In this document: positions 2,145 through 10,917 of the stretch, in pieces | Numbering within the stretch: position 1 is the first letter of the stretch | Layout of the letters: every line of letters starts with the position of its first letter | Source of the DNA: Candidatus Parvarchaeum sp. | GTDB taxonomy: Archaea > Nanobdellota > Nanobdellia > Parvarchaeales > Parvarchaeaceae | DNA length: 10,917 bases | NCBI GenBank assembly: GCA_049965555.1 | Contig: JBMFWF010000015.1 | Span: forward strand, 1-10,917 | Reading direction: 5' to 3' | Notes under the pieces: generated by a model | Seen by the model: the letters and a program-made list of their open reading frames with translations, nothing else | What the model was told of the DNA's origin: nothing | Databases searched by the model: none | Made by a program: the position numbers and the translations under genes

Positions 2145-3551
2145 TTATTTTTTCCCTTTTAATCTTCTAGGTGTTGTAAGATTGAAAGGATCAAATATTT
2201 TTTCAAGCTTTTCTTTTTCAAGCACGTTTTTCTCTTCCGCTACCTGCTTTATTGTTTTATTTTCTTTTATTGCAGTTTTTACTATCTCAGCGCTTTTTTC
2301 ATATCCAATATAAGGGTTTAAAGCCAAGCCCACTCCGGGCGTTTTATTGACCATTTCTTCAATTCTTTCCTTATTGACTTTTATGTCATTTATTGCCTTT
2401 TCTGCGAATGCCTTGCAGGCATTTCTAAGAATTATCAAATCATGTAAAATGCAGTAACTTATTATCGGCTCCATTACATTTAATTCAAATTGCCCTGCCT
2501 GTGTTGCTAATTCTATGGTCTTATTGTCGCCCATGACCCTGAAGCACACCATATCAACCATTTCTGCCATGCTCGGATTGACTTTGCCAGGCATTATTGA
2601 AGAGCCGGGTTGAACAGCAGGCAAAACAATTTCCGCCAGGCCAGTTATCGGCCCGGAATTCATTAATCTTAGGTCATTGGCAATCTTTATCAAGTCAGCA
2701 GAAAGAACGGTTATTGCTGTTGAAAGTGCAAATAAATCAGAGGGGGATTCTGTAACTGCCGGCAAATCTTTAGCTTGTTTCAATTTAAGGCGAGTCCAAT
2801 TTCTAAGATAGATTATTGCTTTTTTTACATACCTAGGGTCAGCGTTTATCCCAGTTCCTACAGCAGTCGCTCCCAAGTTTATATTTTGGATTTCTTTGTT
2901 TGCTTCTTCTATTCTCTTTATAGACTCTTTTATTAAATCAGACCATGCCTTGAATTCCTGTCCTAATCTTATGGGCGCAGCGTCCATTAAGTGTGTCCTT
3001 CCGCTTTTTATTATTTTGTCAAACTCTGCTGCCTTTTTTGAAAATGATTTTTCTAGTTCATCTAATGCCTTAATTAGTTCGTTTGAAAGTTGCAAACAGG
3101 CTATCTTTGTAGCTGTAGGTATAACATCATTTGAGGACTGGCCCATATTTACATCATCATTTGGGTGTATGACTGAGTAATCCCCTTTTTTTTTGCCAAG
3201 CTTTTCAATGGCGATGTTTGCTATAACTTCATTTACATTCATGTTATTTGAAGTACCTTCCCCTGCTTGGTAAATATCCACTCTAAATTGGTCGTCAAAT
3301 TTTCCATTCAATATTTCATTGCATGCATATACTATCGCATTTGCTTTTTTCTTTTCTAGAAGGCCTATCTCTGAATTTGCCATCGCCGCCGCTTTCTTTA
3401 TTAAAACTATAGCATAAGTATACTCTTTTATTGGAGTTATTCCTGAAATTGGGAAATTATCCAATGCTCTTTGTGTTTGGACTCCCCAATATGCATTGTC
3501 AGGTACTTTTACCGGCCCAAGGTAATCTTTTTCTACTCTAAATTTATCCAT
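2145..3551 (-). CDS. Class II fumarate hydratase / aspartate ammonia-lyase (AspA/FumC family), 468 aa
   Basis: Contains the signature GSSIMPGKVNP plus GQSSNDV, KSGRTHLMDA, GTSNNMNVNE and the N-terminal RVEKDYLG. Sequence details lean towards AspA, while the TCA neighbourhood suggests fumarase. Confidence 0.93.
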   Translation of the reverse strand: MDKFRVEKDYLGPVKVPDNAYWGVQTQRALDNFPISGITPIKEYTYAIVLIKKAAAMANSEIGLLEKKKANAIVYACNEILNGKFDDQFRVDIYQAGEGTSNNMNVNEVIANIAIEKLGKKKGDYSVIHPNDDVNMGQSSNDVIPTATKIACLQLSNELIKALDELEKSFSKKAAEFDKIIKSGRTHLMDAAPIRLGQEFKAWSDLIKESIKRIEEANKEIQNINLGATAVGTGINADPRYVKKAIIYLRNWTRLKLKQAKDLPAVTESPSDLFALSTAITVLSADLIKIANDLRLMNSGPITGLAEIVLPAVQPGSSIMPGKVNPSMAEMVDMVCFRVMGDNKTIELATQAGQFELNVMEPIISYCILHDLIILRNACKAFAEKAINDIKVNKERIEEMVNKTPGVGLALNPYIGYEKSAEIVKTAIKENKTIKQVAEEKNVLEKEKLEKIFDPFNLTTPRRLKGKK

Positions 3552-3584: not shown

Positions 3585-4811
3585 TTAATTTGCGGCTGCA
3601 TTTGTTTTTACTTTTTTACCTTTTAAAGTTATGAATGTACCTACAGTGGTAACGACATTTGTTAGAATAATTACATATGTCACAAGTATCAGAAATGTAT
3701 TTGCTTTTGGTATACCATATTCTAATGCCAATGTCGCTAATGTGGCGGGAGTTAGGCCTTGGGCCAGTGAAATAAATATAGGTAATTTATCTTTTACCAT
3801 GTCCGATTTATATGTTGATATTGAAACTGCAATTAGCCTTGAAAATAGGAGAATACCTAATATTGCGGCTCCAGCGGCTAAGCCGAAATACAGGCTAGAA
3901 AATGAAAGGCTCAATACCAACCCTAGAAATACAAAGAAGAATGTTTTTAGTATGAATGTAATCTCTCCTTGGAAATTGAATATCTGTTTTTCGAGTTTAT
4001 CCATTCTTATTTTTCTTCTGAATAACTCGCTTATAAATTTATGATTCCCAAAAATTATGCCGAAAATTATAACTGCCAAGTATCCGCTTCCTCCAGCTTT
4101 GTCCGTAATCCCATAAGTGAGGAAAAGTAGGCCAAGAGTCAAAACGTAGGTATAATTTTGTTTTTTAAGATAGTTAAGGAGGTAAATCCAGATCACTGAA
4201 AGTATTAAGCCAATAAATATCCCTATAGAGAATGAGGAAACCAAAGAATCTACAGTAGAATAGATATTTGCACTCCCGCTTTGATACAAACCAACAAATG
4301 CTAAGAACAATACTACTAAAACTATTGAATTTAGAGCAGCTTCAAAAGTTAAGAACATTATCGTTTTATCCTTTACTTCTAATTGCCTTGATAAAGGTAT
4401 TATTACAACAGTTGTAGTTTCGCCTCCAACTATAGAAGCAAAGATCAAAGATATAACTAAATCAAAATGTAACACAAAATAAGATAGTAAAGTCACTAAT
4501 ACTATGCTTATGCTTACATATAATGCGACTTGAACGAATGGTCTCCAGCCATCCTTGAGCAATGTTCTAGCTTTTAAGTCTAATCCGCCGTGAAATATAA
4601 CCATTATAAGTGTTATCTCTGCAAGGACTCCAAGCAAAGGAAGCAAAGAAGCTTTTTGTATCACTCCTAAGACAGGGCCCAATATGAATCCTATAAATAC
4701 AAGGAAAAGAAATGATGGTACATGCGTTTTTTTGAATATCTGTTCTCCTATGTAACCTAGAAATATTATGAGCGCCGATATAAGTAATATAAAGGTTGTC
4801 GAATCAGACAT
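3585..4811 (-). CDS. Cation:proton antiporter (CPA1/NhaP-like), 408 aa
   Basis: Has roughly 12-13 hydrophobic segments and the motifs P..LFLVFIGFILGPVLG, IFHGGLDL, GGSGYLAVIIFGIIFGN, FFFVFLG and QGLTPATLA. Confidence 0.88.
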   Translation of the reverse strand: MSDSTTFILLISALIIFLGYIGEQIFKKTHVPSFLFLVFIGFILGPVLGVIQKASLLPLLGVLAEITLIMVIFHGGLDLKARTLLKDGWRPFVQVALYVSISIVLVTLLSYFVLHFDLVISLIFASIVGGETTTVVIIPLSRQLEVKDKTIMFLTFEAALNSIVLVVLFLAFVGLYQSGSANIYSTVDSLVSSFSIGIFIGLILSVIWIYLLNYLKKQNYTYVLTLGLLFLTYGITDKAGGSGYLAVIIFGIIFGNHKFISELFRRKIRMDKLEKQIFNFQGEITFILKTFFFVFLGLVLSLSFSSLYFGLAAGAAILGILLFSRLIAVSISTYKSDMVKDKLPIFISLAQGLTPATLATLALEYGIPKANTFLILVTYVIILTNVVTTVGTFITLKGKKVKTNAAAN

Positions 4812-6027
4812 TTTTATTTTCCCCCTTGTATTTTTGCTTATTTATAACAGATATCATTAAGCTGTTCAGGAATATTGTCACGAATATAACTGCGAACACT
4901 ATGTCTATAAATGCCCCGGTTCCAGGTATAGCGTAGCTTAAAGGAAGTGCTGCAACCACCGCCGCTCCTGCCCCTCTTGATACCATCGAGCCTATTATGG
5001 CCTTGTCTTTTGGTTCATATGAAGATTTATATAACACAATCTTTGTTGAGGCATATTTAGTTATGACAAGAGCCAAAGCTATTACTATCCCAAATATAAA
5101 ACCTAAGTAATCATTTAATAGCACCAGGGCACCAAAATAAACAAAGAAGAAGGAAGTAGTTAGAAATGTAACTAGTTCATTGAAAGATTTGGATTCTTTG
5201 TTTATATTGAAAGACACGCTGTGCCTATATTTTAGCGATCTAAATATATTCTCCCCATTTGCTATTATTATACCGAAAACTAATACTGATATCGGTCCGC
5301 TGCCATTTATCGCTCCTATGAAGACATACAGAAGAAAGGCTATAGCTAGTGAAGCTACGTATGAATAATCATATCTTTTCCTTTGTAGGTAACTCATCAT
5401 AGGAACCCACGCCATGCCTATGAGCGCTCCAATTACAGCACCTATTGAAAATTCTGAGATCACTCTCCCAGAAACAAAGCTTATGCTAGTGTTATTTAAT
5501 ATTATTGCGCCCACTAATACCAAAACAAATATTATTGTTAATGGCTCTTCTACTGTCGCTTCTAATTCTACAAGATTCCTTGCCTTTTCTGTACCGCTCC
5601 TTCTGCTGAAACTTGATACTACAGAGAGGCTTAATCCAGCAACAGTTAAGCTTAGCAGGCCTGAAACTAATAAGTTGTTGAGCAGAAAGTAAGTTATAAA
5701 GAAAACTGCTATGAAAGACAGTGTGAAGTTTGTTAAAGACAGCGCCAATCCCCTGGATATTGTGCGTATTATTTTTCTAAGATTTATGCTTAAACCCGCA
5801 TTAAAAAGTGTAAGCAGTATTATTATGTTTATTATAAAGGGAAGATAAGAAAGCAATGAATTTCTTTTTAGTAATCCAAGAACAGGCCCAAGCAGAAGGC
5901 CAAAGAACATAAGCCATAGTATGTAAGGTATAGTAGTTTTTTTACCCAATACTCTGCCTAAAAAGCCGATAAGCAGGACTCCTGCGGTGCCCAGCATCAA
6001 AAAATTTAGCACTGATGAATCTAACAT
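4804..6027 (-). CDS. Cation:proton antiporter (CPA1/NhaP-like), paralog of the downstream gene, 407 aa
   Basis: Has the motifs PYILWLMFFGLLLGPVLG, LFNAGLSIN, NGSGPISVLVFGIIIAN, FFFVYFG and SRGAGAAVVA. It overlaps the next gene by 8 nt (ATGTCTGA), which suggests translational coupling. Confidence 0.86.
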   Translation of the reverse strand: MLDSSVLNFLMLGTAGVLLIGFLGRVLGKKTTIPYILWLMFFGLLLGPVLGLLKRNSLLSYLPFIINIIILLTLFNAGLSINLRKIIRTISRGLALSLTNFTLSFIAVFFITYFLLNNLLVSGLLSLTVAGLSLSVVSSFSRRSGTEKARNLVELEATVEEPLTIIFVLVLVGAIILNNTSISFVSGRVISEFSIGAVIGALIGMAWVPMMSYLQRKRYDYSYVASLAIAFLLYVFIGAINGSGPISVLVFGIIIANGENIFRSLKYRHSVSFNINKESKSFNELVTFLTTSFFFVYFGALVLLNDYLGFIFGIVIALALVITKYASTKIVLYKSSYEPKDKAIIGSMVSRGAGAAVVAALPLSYAIPGTGAFIDIVFAVIFVTIFLNSLMISVINKQKYKGENKNV

Positions 6028-6177: not shown

Positions 6178-7293
6178 ATGGTAAACCTTCTTGAATTTGA
6201 GGGTAAAAAATTGTTCAAGTCTTTTGGCATAGATGTACCAACAGGTCAATTAATACACTCCATTAAAGATTTTAAGAATTTTCAGGAAGAGGATGTAATA
6301 AAAGCCCAGGTGCCTACCGGCCATAGAGGGATAAACGGCGGAGTCTTGAAATTTAAAACAAGGGAAGAATTCATTATCGCTTTCAATAAAGTTAGTTCGC
6401 TTACTTTTAATGGTTTTAAACCAACTTCTTTTTTAGTGGAAAAGGCAATAAAACATAATAAAGAACTGTATGTCGCTTTGACTCTAGACAGAAATAATAA
6501 ATCACCAATACTGCTAGTTTCTTCAGAAGGGGGCGTTGACATAGAAAAGATACCAAAAAACAGAATTAAAAGCTTAGATTTAGACATCTTCGTGGGCATT
6601 TTAGATTATCAGATGAGGCAGGCTTTTAAATTTACTGGGTTAGATGGAAAGTACAGGCCTGAATTTTACAATATACTAAGCTCGATGTGGAAGATATTTA
6701 CGGAGAAAGACGCCGAATTGGTAGAAATAAATCCTCTAGCAGTAACAGATTCTGGATTGATCGCATTGGATTCTAAGGTTTCTATTGAAGACGACTCGTT
6801 ATTTAGACATCCAGAGTACAAAAGAGATGAATATTCTTCTGACGATATAGAGATGAAAGCGAAGAAAAAAGGAATATCTTTTGTTAGATTAAATGGGAAT
6901 ATTGGCTTAATAGCAAATGGAGCAGGTTTAACCTTGGCGACAATTGACCAGATAAAGTTGGCAGGAGGGATGGCAGGCGATTTCTTAGATCTTGGGGGTA
7001 CAGACGATCCTGCAAGAGTAGCTGAGGCTATAGATTTAGTAAGGGAATCAAATCCTAAGGTCCTTTTCATAAATATATTTGGAGGGGTAACAAAGGCAGA
7101 TACTGTTGCAGAAGGCATTATACAGGCAATAAATAAGCTTAACATAAATTTCAAAATAGTAGTGAGGTTAAAGGGCTTTAATGAAGTGAAGGGAAAAGAA
7201 CTTTTGAGAAAGAATGGAATAGTCGCCTTTACTGACATGGGAGAAGCAATAAAAGAGGTGGTAAAACTAGCAAATTATGGCAATTCTAATTGA
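6178..7293 (+). CDS. sucC: Succinyl-CoA synthetase beta subunit
   Basis: Motifs NLLEFEGKKLF, KAQVPTGHRG, ELYVALTLDR, SSEGGVDIE, LVEINPL, GLIANGAGLTLATID, DFLDLGG, INIFGG and VVRLKG. Directly upstream of sucD. Confidence 0.95.
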   Translation: MVNLLEFEGKKLFKSFGIDVPTGQLIHSIKDFKNFQEEDVIKAQVPTGHRGINGGVLKFKTREEFIIAFNKVSSLTFNGFKPTSFLVEKAIKHNKELYVALTLDRNNKSPILLVSSEGGVDIEKIPKNRIKSLDLDIFVGILDYQMRQAFKFTGLDGKYRPEFYNILSSMWKIFTEKDAELVEINPLAVTDSGLIALDSKVSIEDDSLFRHPEYKRDEYSSDDIEMKAKKKGISFVRLNGNIGLIANGAGLTLATIDQIKLAGGMAGDFLDLGGTDDPARVAEAIDLVRESNPKVLFINIFGGVTKADTVAEGIIQAINKLNINFKIVVRLKGFNEVKGKELLRKNGIVAFTDMGEAIKEVVKLANYGNSN

Positions 7294-8146
7294 TAAAGAA
7301 ACTAAAGTACTGATTCAAGGAATAACAGGTCACCAAGGCAGGTTTCATTCAAAAGCAATGGTTGATTTCGGAACAAAAGTGGTCGCAGGGGTTACTCCTG
7401 GCAAAGGAGGCCAGAGGGTAAATGGGATAAGAGTATTTGATGATGTAGACAGTGCAGTTAAAAAGACTGGTGCCAATGCTTCCGTAGTTTTTGTGCCAGC
7501 TTCAATGACGAAAGATTCTGTTATAGAGGCTATTGACGCAGGCATAAGGTTAATTACAATAATAACGGAACATGTTCCTTTTCAAGATATGCTAAAAATA
7601 AATGAATACGCGAAGTTAAAAGGCGTAAAAATAATAGGGCCGAATTGCCCAGGATTGGCCGCTCCCGGAATTGGAAAGTTAGGTATAATACCTAATAGTA
7701 TACTCAAAAGAGGAGTTATAGGAGTGGTTTCAAGAAGCGGAACACTAACTTATGAAATTGTTGATGTCATAACTGAAACAGGATTTGGAGAAAGCACAGT
7801 TTTGGGAATAGGAGGGGACAAGGTTCCCGGCATGGACTTTATTGATGTTTTAAAATTGTTTGAAGACGACAAGCAGACAAAAGGAATAGTTATAGTTGGA
7901 GAGATAGGAGGGAGCGAGGAGGAAAAAGCTGCTGATTTTATAAGAAAGAACGTTAAAAAACCTGTTTTTGCCTTTATAGATGGCATATATGCTCCTCCTG
8001 GGAAAAGGATGGGACATGCTGGCGCTATAATATCTGGTAATACAGGTACCGCAAAAAGCAAGTTGGCAGCATTTAAAAAAGCGAATGTTCCAGTTGCAAA
8101 AACCTTTAGCGAACTTTCCAGTTTCATAGTAAGAAAATTAGGATAA
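7277..8146 (+). CDS. sucD: Succinyl-CoA synthetase alpha subunit
   Basis: Motifs QGITGHQG, GVTPGKGG, IIGPNCPG, SRSGTLTYE, GEIGG and the phospho-His motif PPGKRMGHAGA. Overlaps sucC by 17 nt. Confidence 0.97.
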   Translation: MAILIDKETKVLIQGITGHQGRFHSKAMVDFGTKVVAGVTPGKGGQRVNGIRVFDDVDSAVKKTGANASVVFVPASMTKDSVIEAIDAGIRLITIITEHVPFQDMLKINEYAKLKGVKIIGPNCPGLAAPGIGKLGIIPNSILKRGVIGVVSRSGTLTYEIVDVITETGFGESTVLGIGGDKVPGMDFIDVLKLFEDDKQTKGIVIVGEIGGSEEEKAADFIRKNVKKPVFAFIDGIYAPPGKRMGHAGAIISGNTGTAKSKLAAFKKANVPVAKTFSELSSFIVRKLG

Positions 8147-8199
8147 ATATCGTACGCATTATATTTAAAAATACAAAACATTAAATATAATAAAAACAA

Positions 8200-8222
8200 C
8201 TGTTATATTGTTTATATAACAG
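8200..8222. promoter_or_regulatory. Perfect 9-bp inverted repeat (CTGTTATAT-N5-ATATAACAG) overlapping a TTTATATA box upstream of the thioredoxin-oxidoreductase operon; candidate operator
   Basis: The arms at 8200-8208 and 8214-8222 are exact reverse complements. TTTATATA is at 8211-8218 and the SD GGAGGT follows at 8230-8235. Confidence 0.5.
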
Positions 8223-8245
8223 ATATTTTGGAGGTAAATAAAAAA

Positions 8246-8563
8246 ATGGAAGAAGTAAACGGCGAAGAACAATTTGAAAAATTGGTTCTAAAATCTAGTA
8301 CACCTGTATTGGTGGATTTGTGGGCACCTTGGTGTATGCCTTGCAGATGGTATTCTCCAATAATAGAGAAGACTGCTGAAGAAATGAAAGACAAATTTAA
8401 GCTTGTAAAAGTAAATGTAGATGAAAATCAAGAGATAGCTGCAAAATACGGCGTTGAAGCAATTCCAACTACTTTGCTTATAGAGAATGGAAAAGTTAAA
8501 GCCAGTATCGTTGGCGCAATGCAAGCCGATCAGCTCAAAGGATGGCTTGGGAAGAATCTTTAA
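8246..8563 (+). CDS. trxA: Thioredoxin (WCMPC active site), about 105 aa
   Basis: Motifs PVLVDLWAPWCMPC, KVNVDENQEIAAKYGVEAIPT and IVGA. I prefer the ATG at 8246 because GGAGGT (8230-8235) precedes it. Its stop codon abuts the next start (TAA-ATG). Confidence 0.95.
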   Translation: MEEVNGEEQFEKLVLKSSTPVLVDLWAPWCMPCRWYSPIIEKTAEEMKDKFKLVKVNVDENQEIAAKYGVEAIPTTLLIENGKVKASIVGAMQADQLKGWLGKNL

Positions 8564-10414
8564 ATGACAGAATTAACCTGGATGACTGGTGGAAAACAAG
8601 GCAGTGGTATAGACGTATCTTTAAGCCTATTTTCAAGAGTAATGATGAAGTATGGCTATAACATATACGGTTATAGGGAATACTTCTCAAATATCAAAGG
8701 GATGCACAGTTTTTTCACTGTACGTGTGTCTGACAAACAAATCGCTTCTATACCGAGTAAGGTGGATCTTGCAATATTTTTTGATACTGAATCAGTTTTG
8801 GGCGAAGTAAATGAAAGAGGAGAGGTTGTTCAGGACGGCCATGTTAAAGATATTAAAGAAAATGGAACTTTGGTTGTAGACAGTAAAATTGACAAAAGCA
8901 AAATAAGCAGAAAAGACATAAATGTGCTTGACATAGACTTTGACGCAATAATAACAAGCGTGGCTAAAAAGTTGAACAAACCTACAAGTGAATTAGTGAT
9001 CTCCAAAAACATAATCTGTGTTACAGCTTCCTGTTATTTACTTGGTTTAGAAGATAGTTACATAGTCGATGCAATAAAAACAGAGTTTGCAAAGAAGCCG
9101 AAGAGTGTTATTGATTTAGATATATCTGTTTCAGAGGAAACTATAGAGTACATGAAAAGTAAGAATGAATCCCTTGCTACCGAGACTTTGAATCACATAA
9201 AAACAAAAGGGATAGCTCCCATAACAAAGCTTGACAACAAGAACAAAGGAGAACAGCTTTACATGGAAGGCTTTGCCTCCACGGCAATAGGTAAAGCTAT
9301 AGCTGGCTGTAAAATGCAGATCTATTATCCTATAACGCCGGCCAGCGATGAAAGCGTGTTTATAGAGTCCCATCCCGAGTTAGGCATTCGCGTAGTCCAG
9401 CCAGAAAGCGAGTTAGCAGTTCTTGCAATGGCTACAGGCGCAGCAATAGCGGGCGCAAGGGCCTCGACTTCTACTTCCGGCCCTGGTCTTTCGTTGATGT
9501 CGGAAACAGTTACTTGGGCAGGGATGAATGAAGTACCAATAGTTTTAGTAGATCATCAGAGAGGGGCGCCGGCAACCGGACAGCCAACAAGGACAGAGCA
9601 AGGAGATCTAATGTTTGCAGTCCATCAGGGGCATGGCGATTTCGGCAGGATCATTATTGCGCCTGGAGACGTAAAGGACAGCATAAAAATGACTGCAGAT
9701 GCGTTTAATTATGCGGAAAGGTACCAACTCCCTGTTATAGTTCTAGGGGAGAAAGCAATTTCACAGGGTTCAATGAATATAAGCAAAAGCACAATTCTAG
9801 ACATAAAGAAAAATTATAAAGTCGATAGGGGTAAATTAATCGATAATGTCAACGGCGAATATAAAAGATTCAAATTTACAGAAGACAATATCTCAGACAG
9901 GATAGTTCCAGGCAATCCAAATGCAATTTTTTGGCTCACAGGAGATGAACACGACGAGTGGGGCCACGTTTCTGAGGATCCTAATAACAGAATAAAAATG
10001 ATGGAAAAAAGAAATGGGAAATACGCTCAAATACTAAAGGAAATAAAGAAAGAGGATAAATTTACTTTAATAGGCGATCCTAAGACGGCAGATCTTTTAG
10101 TAGTTACTTGGGGAGGCCCTTCCGAGGCATTAAAAGAAGCAGCAAATGGAAAGAATGTTGCAGTTCTTCAAATAAAATTAATACATCCATTGCCAAATGA
10201 AATATTGGATATCCTAAAGAATGCAAAGAAAGTTGCAATTCTGGAAGAAAATATCTCGGCTCAGTTAAAACAGCATATAGCTTCAGTTACTGGCTTTGTG
10301 ATACCAAATGAAATACTGAAGTACAACGGAAGGTTGGTAAGATATGATGAAGTTGAAGATGCAATTAATAAAGTAATAAAAGGAGAAAGCAAGGTGATAC
10401 TAAATGGCTACTGA
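8564..10414 (+). CDS. korA: 2-oxoacid:ferredoxin oxidoreductase alpha subunit (gamma-alpha fused, two-subunit OFOR/KOR type), 616 aa
   Basis: N-terminal GGKQGSGID / YREYFSNIKGMHS domain, then YYPITPASDE, TSTSGPGLSLMSE, QRGAPATGQPTRTEQGD and TGDEHDEWG. Substrate specificity cannot be read from the sequence. Confidence 0.93.
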   Translation: MTELTWMTGGKQGSGIDVSLSLFSRVMMKYGYNIYGYREYFSNIKGMHSFFTVRVSDKQIASIPSKVDLAIFFDTESVLGEVNERGEVVQDGHVKDIKENGTLVVDSKIDKSKISRKDINVLDIDFDAIITSVAKKLNKPTSELVISKNIICVTASCYLLGLEDSYIVDAIKTEFAKKPKSVIDLDISVSEETIEYMKSKNESLATETLNHIKTKGIAPITKLDNKNKGEQLYMEGFASTAIGKAIAGCKMQIYYPITPASDESVFIESHPELGIRVVQPESELAVLAMATGAAIAGARASTSTSGPGLSLMSETVTWAGMNEVPIVLVDHQRGAPATGQPTRTEQGDLMFAVHQGHGDFGRIIIAPGDVKDSIKMTADAFNYAERYQLPVIVLGEKAISQGSMNISKSTILDIKKNYKVDRGKLIDNVNGEYKRFKFTEDNISDRIVPGNPNAIFWLTGDEHDEWGHVSEDPNNRIKMMEKRNGKYAQILKEIKKEDKFTLIGDPKTADLLVVTWGGPSEALKEAANGKNVAVLQIKLIHPLPNEILDILKNAKKVAILEENISAQLKQHIASVTGFVIPNEILKYNGRLVRYDEVEDAINKVIKGESKVILNGY

Positions 10415-10917
10415 TGTTAAAAGTTTGACTTCAAATGAATTTAATGATTGGTGTCCTGGCTGTCTGCTTCCAGACAATACTATAATAGGCAATCCTTCTG
10501 CTAAGGCAATTCAGGAATTTAAGGTAGGAGATAAGGTTCTTGGAAGTGATGGTTATTTCCATAGGATAAATGAGGTCATGTCACATATCCACAAAGGTAA
10601 GATTTACAGGTTAAAAGTTGCGTATTTTGGCGAGACTACATTAACGCATGAACACCCTGTTTTGGCTGTCAAGGCAAGCCAGATAAAAAACGGCGATACA
10701 AATCCCGAATGGTTTGAAACTGAAAAATTGGAAGTTGGCGACTATGTAGTTTACCCTATACTGAAATTAACAAAGGATGTAAAGTACCTGCCTGTATCTT
10801 ACAACAAAAAGAGCAAAGACACAAGAAGTAAAGAATTGGTGAAAAAAGTAAATGTAGACAGTGATTTTCTAAGACTTGCAGGATATTACATAGCAGAAGG
10901 CAATACCCATAATAGAG
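10404..10917 (+). CDS. korB: 2-oxoacid:ferredoxin oxidoreductase beta subunit precursor, intein-containing (truncated by the window end; absent from the ORF track)
   Basis: The ATG at 10404 overlaps the korA end by 11 nt, with SD AGGTGA at 10392-10397. The frame reads MATDVKSLTSNEFNDWCPG-C and stays open to the window end (171 codons). DWCPGC is the conserved N-terminal Fe-S motif of OFOR beta subunits. Confidence 0.88.
   Translation, partial: MATDVKSLTSNEFNDWCPGCLLPDNTIIGNPSAKAIQEFKVGDKVLGSDGYFHRINEVMSHIHKGKIYRLKVAYFGETTLTHEHPVLAVKASQIKNGDTNPEWFETEKLEVGDYVVYPILKLTKDVKYLPVSYNKKSKDTRSKELVKKVNVDSDFLRLAGYYIAEGNTHNR
10461..10917 (+). mobile_element. Intein with LAGLIDADG homing endonuclease (N-terminal part)
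   Basis: After WCPG the protein reads CLLPDNTIIG (block A, Cys1), IQEFKVGDKVLG (N2), IYRLKV, TLTHEHPVL (block B TxxH, Thr codon at 10644, His codon at 10653), WFETEKLEVGDYV (N4) and FLRLAGYYIAEG (first LAGLIDADG helix, LAGYYIAEG at 10875-10901). The expected CG[DN]FG OFOR-beta continuation is missing. Confidence 0.93.

Follow-up and report, generated by a model that had tools for sequence, protein, structure and literature searches.

An apparently mobile intein in the CxGC motif of an archaeal 2-oxoacid:ferredoxin oxidoreductase and its probable independence from the adjacent thioredoxin gene

Introduction

Conditional protein splicing controlled by disulfides at the splice junction rests on very few natural examples. 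Traps in which the extein residues CPG precede the catalytic Cys1 have been engineered in the Ssp and Npu DnaE inteins (Callahan et al. 2011, 2013, as described in the available text of PMC10772547), and one natural Cys-3/Cys1 case is cited in the available portions of PMC3922620 and PMC10663303, that of the Pyrococcus abyssi (Pab) MoaA intein (Callahan et al. 2011). Here, we analysed a stretch of 10,917 bases from Candidatus Parvarchaeum sp. (hereafter the window), which is the whole of contig C15 (JBMFWF010000015.1) in a 28-contig assembly (GCA_049965555.1; 783,591 bases, rated 92% complete). It carries a thioredoxin gene (trx) followed by korA and korB, which encode the two subunits of a 2-oxoacid:ferredoxin oxidoreductase (OFOR), and korB is interrupted by an intein. 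The original prediction for this locus was a natural redox-gated splicing system, in which the extein residue Cys(-3) and the intein residue Cys1 would hold the precursor in a disulfide until the co-expressed thioredoxin released it. Both precedents named above had been invoked in its support, and both are borne out by the literature.

The host motif has been described in a related enzyme. In StOFOR2 of Sulfolobus tokodaii, the conserved CXGC motif ligates the proximal cluster, and aerobes possess OFORs of the (ab)2 type that lack a ferredoxin domain and tolerate oxygen relatively well, according to the available text of PMC5020499; the oxygen sensitivity on which the prediction drew is therefore weaker than had been stated. 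Among the papers retrieved on inteins together with ferredoxin oxidoreductases, none was about an OFOR intein, judged by title and the start of the abstract, and OFOR is not mentioned as an intein host in the available passages of Novikova et al. 2016 (PMC4760082).

The comparisons described below make it likely that korB carries an ordinary mobile intein, that the trx-korAB arrangement is genus-wide and either predates the intein or is independent of it, and that the two do not form a co-adapted redox-gated splicing system.

An intein in the CxGC motif of KorB

The start of korB translates as MATDVKSLTSNEFNDWCPG, followed by CLLPDNTIIG.., TLTHEHP and LRLAGYYIAEGN, which we take to be block A, block B and the first LAGLIDADG motif, respectively. 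Residues W16-C17-P18-G19-C20 of korB (10449-10463) form the predicted junction W-C-P-G|C, in which Cys(-3) and intein Cys1 (korB Cys20, 10461-10463) make up a CxxC motif. At the end of contig C6, the minus strand encodes the last 11 residues of the intein (SYVSNSATLHN), the +1 Cys and a C-extein of 288 amino acids (CGDSGIVLAVKNAI), with the C-terminal junction reading ..SATLHN|CGDSG. Approximately 200 intein residues are unassembled between contigs C15 and C6 and, because they are missing, the assembly contains no LAGLIDADG_3 match anywhere; nothing intein-like was found on the ten short contigs C19-C28. The fragment in the window gives a weak Intein_splicing match (10557-10865; E 0.0018; 17.2 bits, under the cut-off of 35.8). 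Contig C15 at its 3' end and contig C6 at its end both stop within the intein, which could be due to coexisting intein-bearing and intein-free strains in the sample.

Full-length relatives of 364 amino acids are 87-91% identical to the part of the intein present in the window. The relatives' inteins are 364-367 amino acids long (374 in the more distant L021), carry Cys1, TLTHEHP and both LAGLIDADG motifs, and end in ..VNSYVSNSATLHN|CGD. Relative P0004 matches LAGLIDADG_3 with 42.8 bits (cut-off 22.5) and Intein_splicing with 29.4 bits (under cut-off), and L022 has a mini-intein of 158 amino acids at the same korB site that reaches 35.8 bits for Intein_splicing, at the cut-off. Cys1 is invariant in 11 of 11 aligned inteins, as are T62 and H65 of block B and the C-terminal H363 and N364. 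By these sequence features, the korB insert is identified as a class-1 intein with a LAGLIDADG homing endonuclease, placed between Gly and Cys of the CxGC motif. Some korB inteins (P0104, P0108, L137 and L138) end in SSN|C or SGN|C, without the penultimate His.

The insertion site belongs to the host. Intein-free alleles of the genus read NDWCPGCGDSGIV at the korB site, with no residue gained or lost, and four of them (L005, L006, L009 and L028) share with the window all of the first 20 korB residues, from the N-extein through the next Cys. All 14 intein-free genus alleles fit the pattern NDWC[PGS]GC[GA]D without any indel (CPGC in 12, CGGC and CSGC in one each), and the L006 allele is 98.6% identical to the C-extein of the present genome. 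When KorB of L006 was compared with the beta subunit of StOFOR2 (5b48_B; E 1.2e-91), NDWCPGCG was aligned and CPGC corresponded to Cys12b-Cys15b. The C-extein is the sole TPP_enzyme_C match in the genome (90.8 bits), and the enzyme is a two-subunit (ab)2 OFOR with a fused gamma-alpha subunit and a thiamine pyrophosphate-binding beta subunit that has CxGC, and without a ferredoxin domain. By homology, Cys(-3) and Cys(+1) of korB are assigned as [4Fe-4S] cluster ligands. As CPGC is the conserved CxGC motif of the host itself, its appearance in the precursor is an automatic by-product of the insertion site, just as the caveat attached to the original prediction had allowed, and Cys(-3), present in 14 of 14 intein-free genus alleles, is ascribed to the host and not to a trap. 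Splicing would be autocatalytic, after which the +1 Cys would re-form CPGC with Cys17 and allow cluster binding by the enzyme.

Thioredoxin linkage and intein presence within the genus

A KorA search over 41 genomes (including the present one, G000) returned 28 loci, in which trx, korA, the intein and the C-extein were located. In 22 of 22 genus loci with a visible upstream side, trx lies -1 to 19 nucleotides (nt) upstream of korA. Nine of these loci bear the intein (L004, which is the window, L008, L010, L011, L016, L020, L021, L029, and L022 with the mini-intein), 11 are intein-free (L005, L006, L007, L009, L013, L014, L015, L017, L018, L019 and L023), and two have korB out of view (L012 and L024); three more intein-free alleles (L028, L030 and L031) come from sequences cut before the trx position. 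Linkage of trx had been expected to follow the presence of the intein, and this comparison speaks against it: trx is joined to korAB in relatives with and without the intein, so that the two do not look co-adapted. The trx-korAB synteny is kept down to approximately 60% korA identity. L025 and L026, two korAB loci of the same class that come from other families, have no trx within 1.5 kb upstream.

The intein itself is patchily distributed. In a maximum-likelihood phylogeny of korA from 20 genus loci and one outgroup, the intein label requires seven gains or losses, at least six of which are forced by well-supported branches. The label does not fit the tree better than chance: shuffled labels gave a mean of 7.0 changes, and 329-331 of 500 shuffles were as low as the observed value. 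The nearest relatives of the window (L005, L006, L007 and L009) lack the intein. We interpret this pattern as that of a homing element which is gained and lost, and not of a fixed regulator, and the korB intein is probably still mobile. Two genomes have two korA/korB copies each, one with the intein and one without (L005 and L029 in G012; L020 and L031 in G015). The paired copies differ in their identity to the window and are either mixed bins or real paralogues.

The thioredoxin of the window matches PF00085 with 100.1 bits over profile positions 7-101 of 103, has the WCxxC active site, and is the single PF00085 match in the whole assembly; as the only thioredoxin of this genome it cannot be dedicated to the intein. 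A bona fide thioredoxin reductase (TrxR) is encoded elsewhere (C1:8037-8927; 396.7 bits, cut-off 343.45). There is also a second, TrxR-like gene (G000:C8:32389-33318; 178.5 bits for TIGR01292, below cut-off), whose product might be a TrxR-like ferredoxin:NADP+ oxidoreductase, a type that appears in the reference list of PMC5020499 as far as available. The unusual WCMPC active site in the clade of the window (8333-8347) could be taken as a sign of co-adaptation, but it occurs in intein-bearing and intein-free loci alike; deeper branches of the genus have WCGPC or WCPPC, and the change is independent of intein presence.

Thioredoxin was found in 27 of 31 genus genomes, 13 of which hold two or three. 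Six of the searched genomes share at least 90% korA identity with the window (G002, G003, G012, G013, G020 and G023). Their thioredoxins are all korA-adjacent, and in G012 each of the two korA genes has one beside it. Eight genomes have a second trx elsewhere and still keep the korA-adjacent copy, three with the intein (G004, G015 and G016) and five without it (G006, G010, G018, G019 and G021).

The same intein in other lineages and its sisters in other proteins

A database search with the precursor of a relative gave 7,098 matches. Among the best 120 of the 7,098, all contain LAGLIDADG_3 and all but one TPP_enzyme_C, and the hosts include Nitrososphaeria, Aenigm-, Micr- and Woesearchaeota, Chloroflexota and others. 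In 119 of these 120, WC[PAVI][GA] precedes the intein (CPGC 106, CAGC 9, CVGC 2, CPAC 1, CIGC 1), the remaining one being N-truncated.

The korB intein is carried by 7 of 80 GTDB species loci. The intein-bearing L036 and the intein-free L037, both labelled Nanoarchaeota, have trx directly upstream of korA and are probably members of the genus treated above. Flanks are visible in three of the remaining six intein-bearing GTDB loci (L039, L040 and L072), and no thioredoxin was found there by phmmer or by Pfam over 67 flanking open reading frames (ORFs). An intein-only alignment yielded 80 metagenome loci, including 32 korB hosts, 25 of them with more than 400 nt visible upstream of korA; phmmer detected no thioredoxin near any of the 25, and PF00085 matched 0 of 156 upstream ORFs of at least 70 amino acids. 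Outside the genus, a thioredoxin is thus nearby in 0 of 28 intein-bearing korAB loci with visible flanks (3 GTDB and 25 metagenome loci). The korAB neighbours in intein-bearing lineages are rubredoxin, an AhpC-type peroxiredoxin, ferredoxin plus a NifU-like gene (L129), 2-hydroxyacid dehydrogenase and aconitase. Among the intein-free GTDB loci of the 80, a nearby trx outside Nanoarchaeota-labelled records is found only in L099, a Nitrososphaerales locus with trx directly upstream of korA, and in L051. A different intein had been suspected in L043 (Micrarchaeota) from a 1.1-kb gap between korA and korB; translation revealed a separate ORF and an intein-free korB.

When the intein region was scored alone, 158 proteins were matched at E <= 1e-10. 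The best 120 of the 158 include 21 NifU_N proteins (approximately 440-550 amino acids) with inteins 36-41% identical to the korB intein. Their N-terminal junction is GNxx in 21 of 21, mostly VGNPV|C, with no Cys at -3, and their C-terminal junction is HN|CGD in all 11 located by pattern, which again places a cluster-binding cysteine at +1. Further relatives with 27-40% identity came from a metagenome scan, and their hosts are listed in Table 1. Taken together, the sister inteins (metagenome loci L140-L152 and L161-L195, and P0164-P0189) are 27-41% identical to the korB intein. At three kinds of sister site (the TrxR-like one and the two ferredoxin-type ones), a CxxC motif spans the N-junction. 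From these sequences, the korB intein lineage appears as one that has settled again and again at functional cysteines of Fe-S and thiol-redox proteins. CxxC is recreated at some sister sites and not at others, which suggests that Cys(-3) belongs to the host site and is not a requirement of the intein.

Gene order and the region upstream of trx

The coordinates of the features are collected in Table 1. As originally noted, the trx stop codon abuts the korA ATG with a 0-nt gap, and korA and korB overlap by 11 nt. These junctions could argue for co-adaptation of thioredoxin and intein, but close packing is common in the window, where other neighbours overlap by 8-17 nt or sit 31-33 nt apart. A 99-nt AT-rich spacer separates sucD from trx.

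The ATG of trx, at 8246, is preceded by the ribosome-binding site GGAGGT (8230-8235). Of the 22 genus loci, 19 have the sequence TTAAATA in the 120 nt before trx, with 0.02 expected per 120 nt from the same loci, and this element is the probable archaeal promoter of the trx-korA-korB unit. The short trx-korA gap can hardly accommodate another promoter, and the three genes are probably co-transcribed; the conserved TATA-like box and the short gap are points that co-adaptation could also draw on. The inverted repeat that follows the box and precedes the ribosome-binding site recurs unchanged in L005, which has no intein, and has decayed in less closely related loci; an operator is conceivable here, as is a hairpin downstream of sucD.

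Fumarase, sucCD and korAB form a compact tricarboxylic acid cycle neighbourhood in the window. The ORF that follows the korB C-extein on contig C6 is presumably a citrate synthase (our own reading, made without a domain scan). The ORFs on four short contigs (C19, C20, C21 and C26; 568-934 nt) stand apart from those elsewhere in the genome, and GC is higher. These contigs resemble one another, C19 and C26 sharing a motif-rich stretch, and are possibly contaminant mobile-element fragments.

Table 1. Features of the window, redox genes beside korAB in other lineages, and host sites of sister inteins
Feature	Position	Strand	Junction or motif	Domain match or family
Class II fumarase	2145-3551			
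Two tandem Na+/H+ exchanger family genes, 8-nt overlap, beside fumarase	3585-6027	-		
sucC	6178-7293	+		
sucD	7277-8146	+		
TATA-box-like element, 65 nt before trx start	8181-8187	+	TTAAATA	
Perfect 9-nt inverted repeat, between TATA-like box and ribosome-binding site	8200-8222	.	CTGTTATAT-N5-ATATAACAG	
Thioredoxin (trx), 105 amino acids	8246-8563	+	active site WCMPC	PF00085 E 8.3e-29
korA, fused gamma+alpha subunit of two-subunit OFOR, 616 amino acids	8564-10414	+		POR_N E 3.1e-51, POR E 1.2e-22, PFOR_II E 5e-05
korB N-extein, 19 amino acids	10404-10460	+	MATDV..NDWCPG	
CPGC codons: extein Cys(-3), Pro, Gly, intein Cys1	10452-10463	+		
Intein N-terminal 152 residues, broken off at contig end	10461-10917	+		
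AhpC/TSA peroxiredoxin beside korAB, Bipolaricaulota-type loci	L040:1532-2029, L130:438-977, L134:481-978	-		
Divergent rubredoxin beside korAB, another lineage	L118:1946-2239, L119:1983-2195	-		
Sister intein, thioredoxin-reductase-like flavoproteins			C[AS][LT]|C..|CD[GA]	Pyr_redox_2
Sister intein, ferredoxin-type proteins			CHF|C..|CTDYCP and CIG|C..|CAAC	Fer4 families
Sister intein, SufB-like proteins			EG|C..|C[TS]AP	SUFBD_core
Sister intein, host without assigned family			PAH|C..|CWTPWF	

Discussion

For an ordinary mobile intein beside an independently kept trx-korAB unit, gain of the intein would occur by homing driven by its presumably active endonuclease, and loss by precise deletion or allele replacement. 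The general Trx/TrxR system, to which trx contributes the only general thioredoxin of this genome, would incidentally reduce any disulfide between Cys(-3) and Cys1 or between Cys1 and Cys(+1). Several observations weigh against this account. The genus loci are kin and not independent samples, with two loci each from G012 and G015; the ORF scans covered ORFs above 60-75 amino acids; and the integrity of the intein in the present genome, the middle of which is unassembled, is deduced from relatives. Retention of the korA-linked trx despite a second trx suggests some functional tie between trx and korAB, which could extend to the precursor. The junction tetrapeptide is identical to that of the engineered trap in the available text of PMC10772547, which makes a disulfide trap at the korB junction chemically plausible. 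In the closest full-length relative, L010, Cys1 is the sole cysteine of the intein, leaving Cys(-3) and Cys(+1) as the only near partners, and on this ground too a trap is chemically possible. From the sequence, a physiological redox effect at this junction is conceivable.

What, then, could tie trx to korAB? By analogy, the thioredoxin may serve the mature enzyme, by keeping the CxGC thiols of apo-KorB reduced for cluster insertion or by reactivating the oxidised enzyme. We regard this as possible but hold it only tentatively. The synteny is deep, intein-independent and kept where a second trx exists, and a rubredoxin (L118, L119) or an AhpC-type peroxiredoxin (L040, L130, L134) stands beside korAB elsewhere. 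A disulfide switch has been described for the pyruvate:ferredoxin oxidoreductase (PFOR) of D. africanus (available text of PMC13768988), and the title of a study cited there names PFOR as a target of thioredoxin 1 in D. vulgaris. However, the Desulfovibrio mechanism uses the C-terminal domain VII, which two-subunit enzymes lack (PMC13768988, same text). The absence of trx upstream of L025 and L026, which belong to the same class, and its restriction to L099 and L051 among intein-free GTDB loci outside Nanoarchaeota-labelled records also argue against this role, and adjacency alone is no proof of function.

A second possibility is that the junction acts as an exapted trap: under oxidative stress a Cys(-3)-Cys1 disulfide would stall KorB maturation, and general Trx/TrxR would release it. 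The effect would be real and physiological wherever the korB intein occurs, no co-adaptation would be needed, and trx would sit in the operon for other reasons. The engineered CPGC trap (PMC10772547) and the natural Pab MoaA precedent (PMC3922620, PMC10663303), both as given in the available texts, favour this idea, and so do the short N-extein of 19 amino acids, the presence of genes for both Trx and TrxR, and the invariance of Cys(-3), Cys1 and Cys(+1) in 16 of 16 aligned diverse homologues. On the other hand, the invariance of Cys(-3) and Cys(+1) comes from their role as cluster ligands and gives no information on a trap; the NifU-like sister inteins (36-41% identity, GNPV|C) do without Cys(-3), so the lineage needs none; free gain and loss within the genus is more in keeping with a neutral or selfish element than with a useful switch; and this OFOR class is reported to be relatively oxygen-tolerant (available text of PMC5020499). 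We consider the exapted trap doubtful.

A broader version is less probable still. In this version, the korB CxGC|C intein truly works as a natural redox trap: Cys(-3) and Cys1 would lock the precursor under oxidative stress, and in the genus the sole, operon-borne thioredoxin, already tied to korAB for keeping the thiols of the cluster ligands reduced, would release it, so that OFOR maturation would track the thiol redox state. The version adds that one LAGLIDADG intein clade has spread among functional cysteines of KorB, ferredoxin-type, TrxR-like, NifU-like and SufB-like proteins, with CxxC recreated in four site types (KorB, TrxR-like and two ferredoxin-type). Finally, a dedicated redox-gated splicing system that controls oxoacid oxidation through co-adaptation of intein and thioredoxin is very improbable, given that trx is linked equally to 11 intein-free and 9 intein-bearing loci, is near 0 of 28 intein-bearing loci outside the genus, and is the only thioredoxin of its genome. 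Of the original prediction as a whole, the motif and the precedents stand, while the co-adaptation with thioredoxin is not borne out.

At the level of the locus the result is thus negative, the pairing of intein and thioredoxin being, in our preferred reading of a mobile intein beside a conserved operon, a coincidence of two independent features. The wider value lies in the site: a widespread korB intein with a native CPGC junction provides many natural sequences that bear on trap function in real proteins, its host enzyme needs the same junction cysteines for activity, and the NifU-like sister inteins without Cys(-3) offer a natural negative control. The conserved trx-korAB operon raises a separate and modest question, namely how archaea with very small genomes maintain the thiols of an Fe-S enzyme.

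Comparison with known systems

Among solved structures, the best match of the intein is PI-PkoII (PDB 2cw7), likewise a class-1 HINT domain interrupted by a LAGLIDADG endonuclease; the match is confined to the endonuclease region (E 1.2e-10, residues 128-273), and host and site are unrelated. On the enzyme side, spliced KorB aligns over 297 residues with StOFOR2 (5b48_B), which is also a two-subunit (ab)2 enzyme with a single [4Fe-4S] cluster. StOFOR differs in having no intein, and an adjacent thioredoxin is not mentioned for it in the available text of PMC5020499. The same-site korB inteins of Nitrososphaeria, DPANN archaea, Chloroflexota and Bipolaricaulota are 36-89% identical, but have no thioredoxin upstream.

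Three systems bear on the redox question. In the Desulfovibrio PFOR switch, an oxoacid:ferredoxin oxidoreductase activity is tied to a reversible disulfide and to thioredoxin, whereas the mechanism resides in domain VII of a one-subunit enzyme and involves no intein (available text of PMC13768988). The engineered CPGC trap has the same tetrapeptide as the korB junction, but it was designed and works in oxidising E. coli strains (PMC10772547, available text), whereas the korB motif is native host sequence; it was also built on DnaE inteins, whereas the korB intein is of a different family, LAGLIDADG-bearing and cis-splicing. Among natural inteins, the korB intein, known from sequence alone and set in another host, shares with the Pab MoaA intein, as portrayed in the available texts cited above, an extein Cys(-3) and a catalytic Cys1, the CxxC across the N-junction and a redox-relevant host enzyme, and it differs in that its flanking cysteines are documented [4Fe-4S] ligands.

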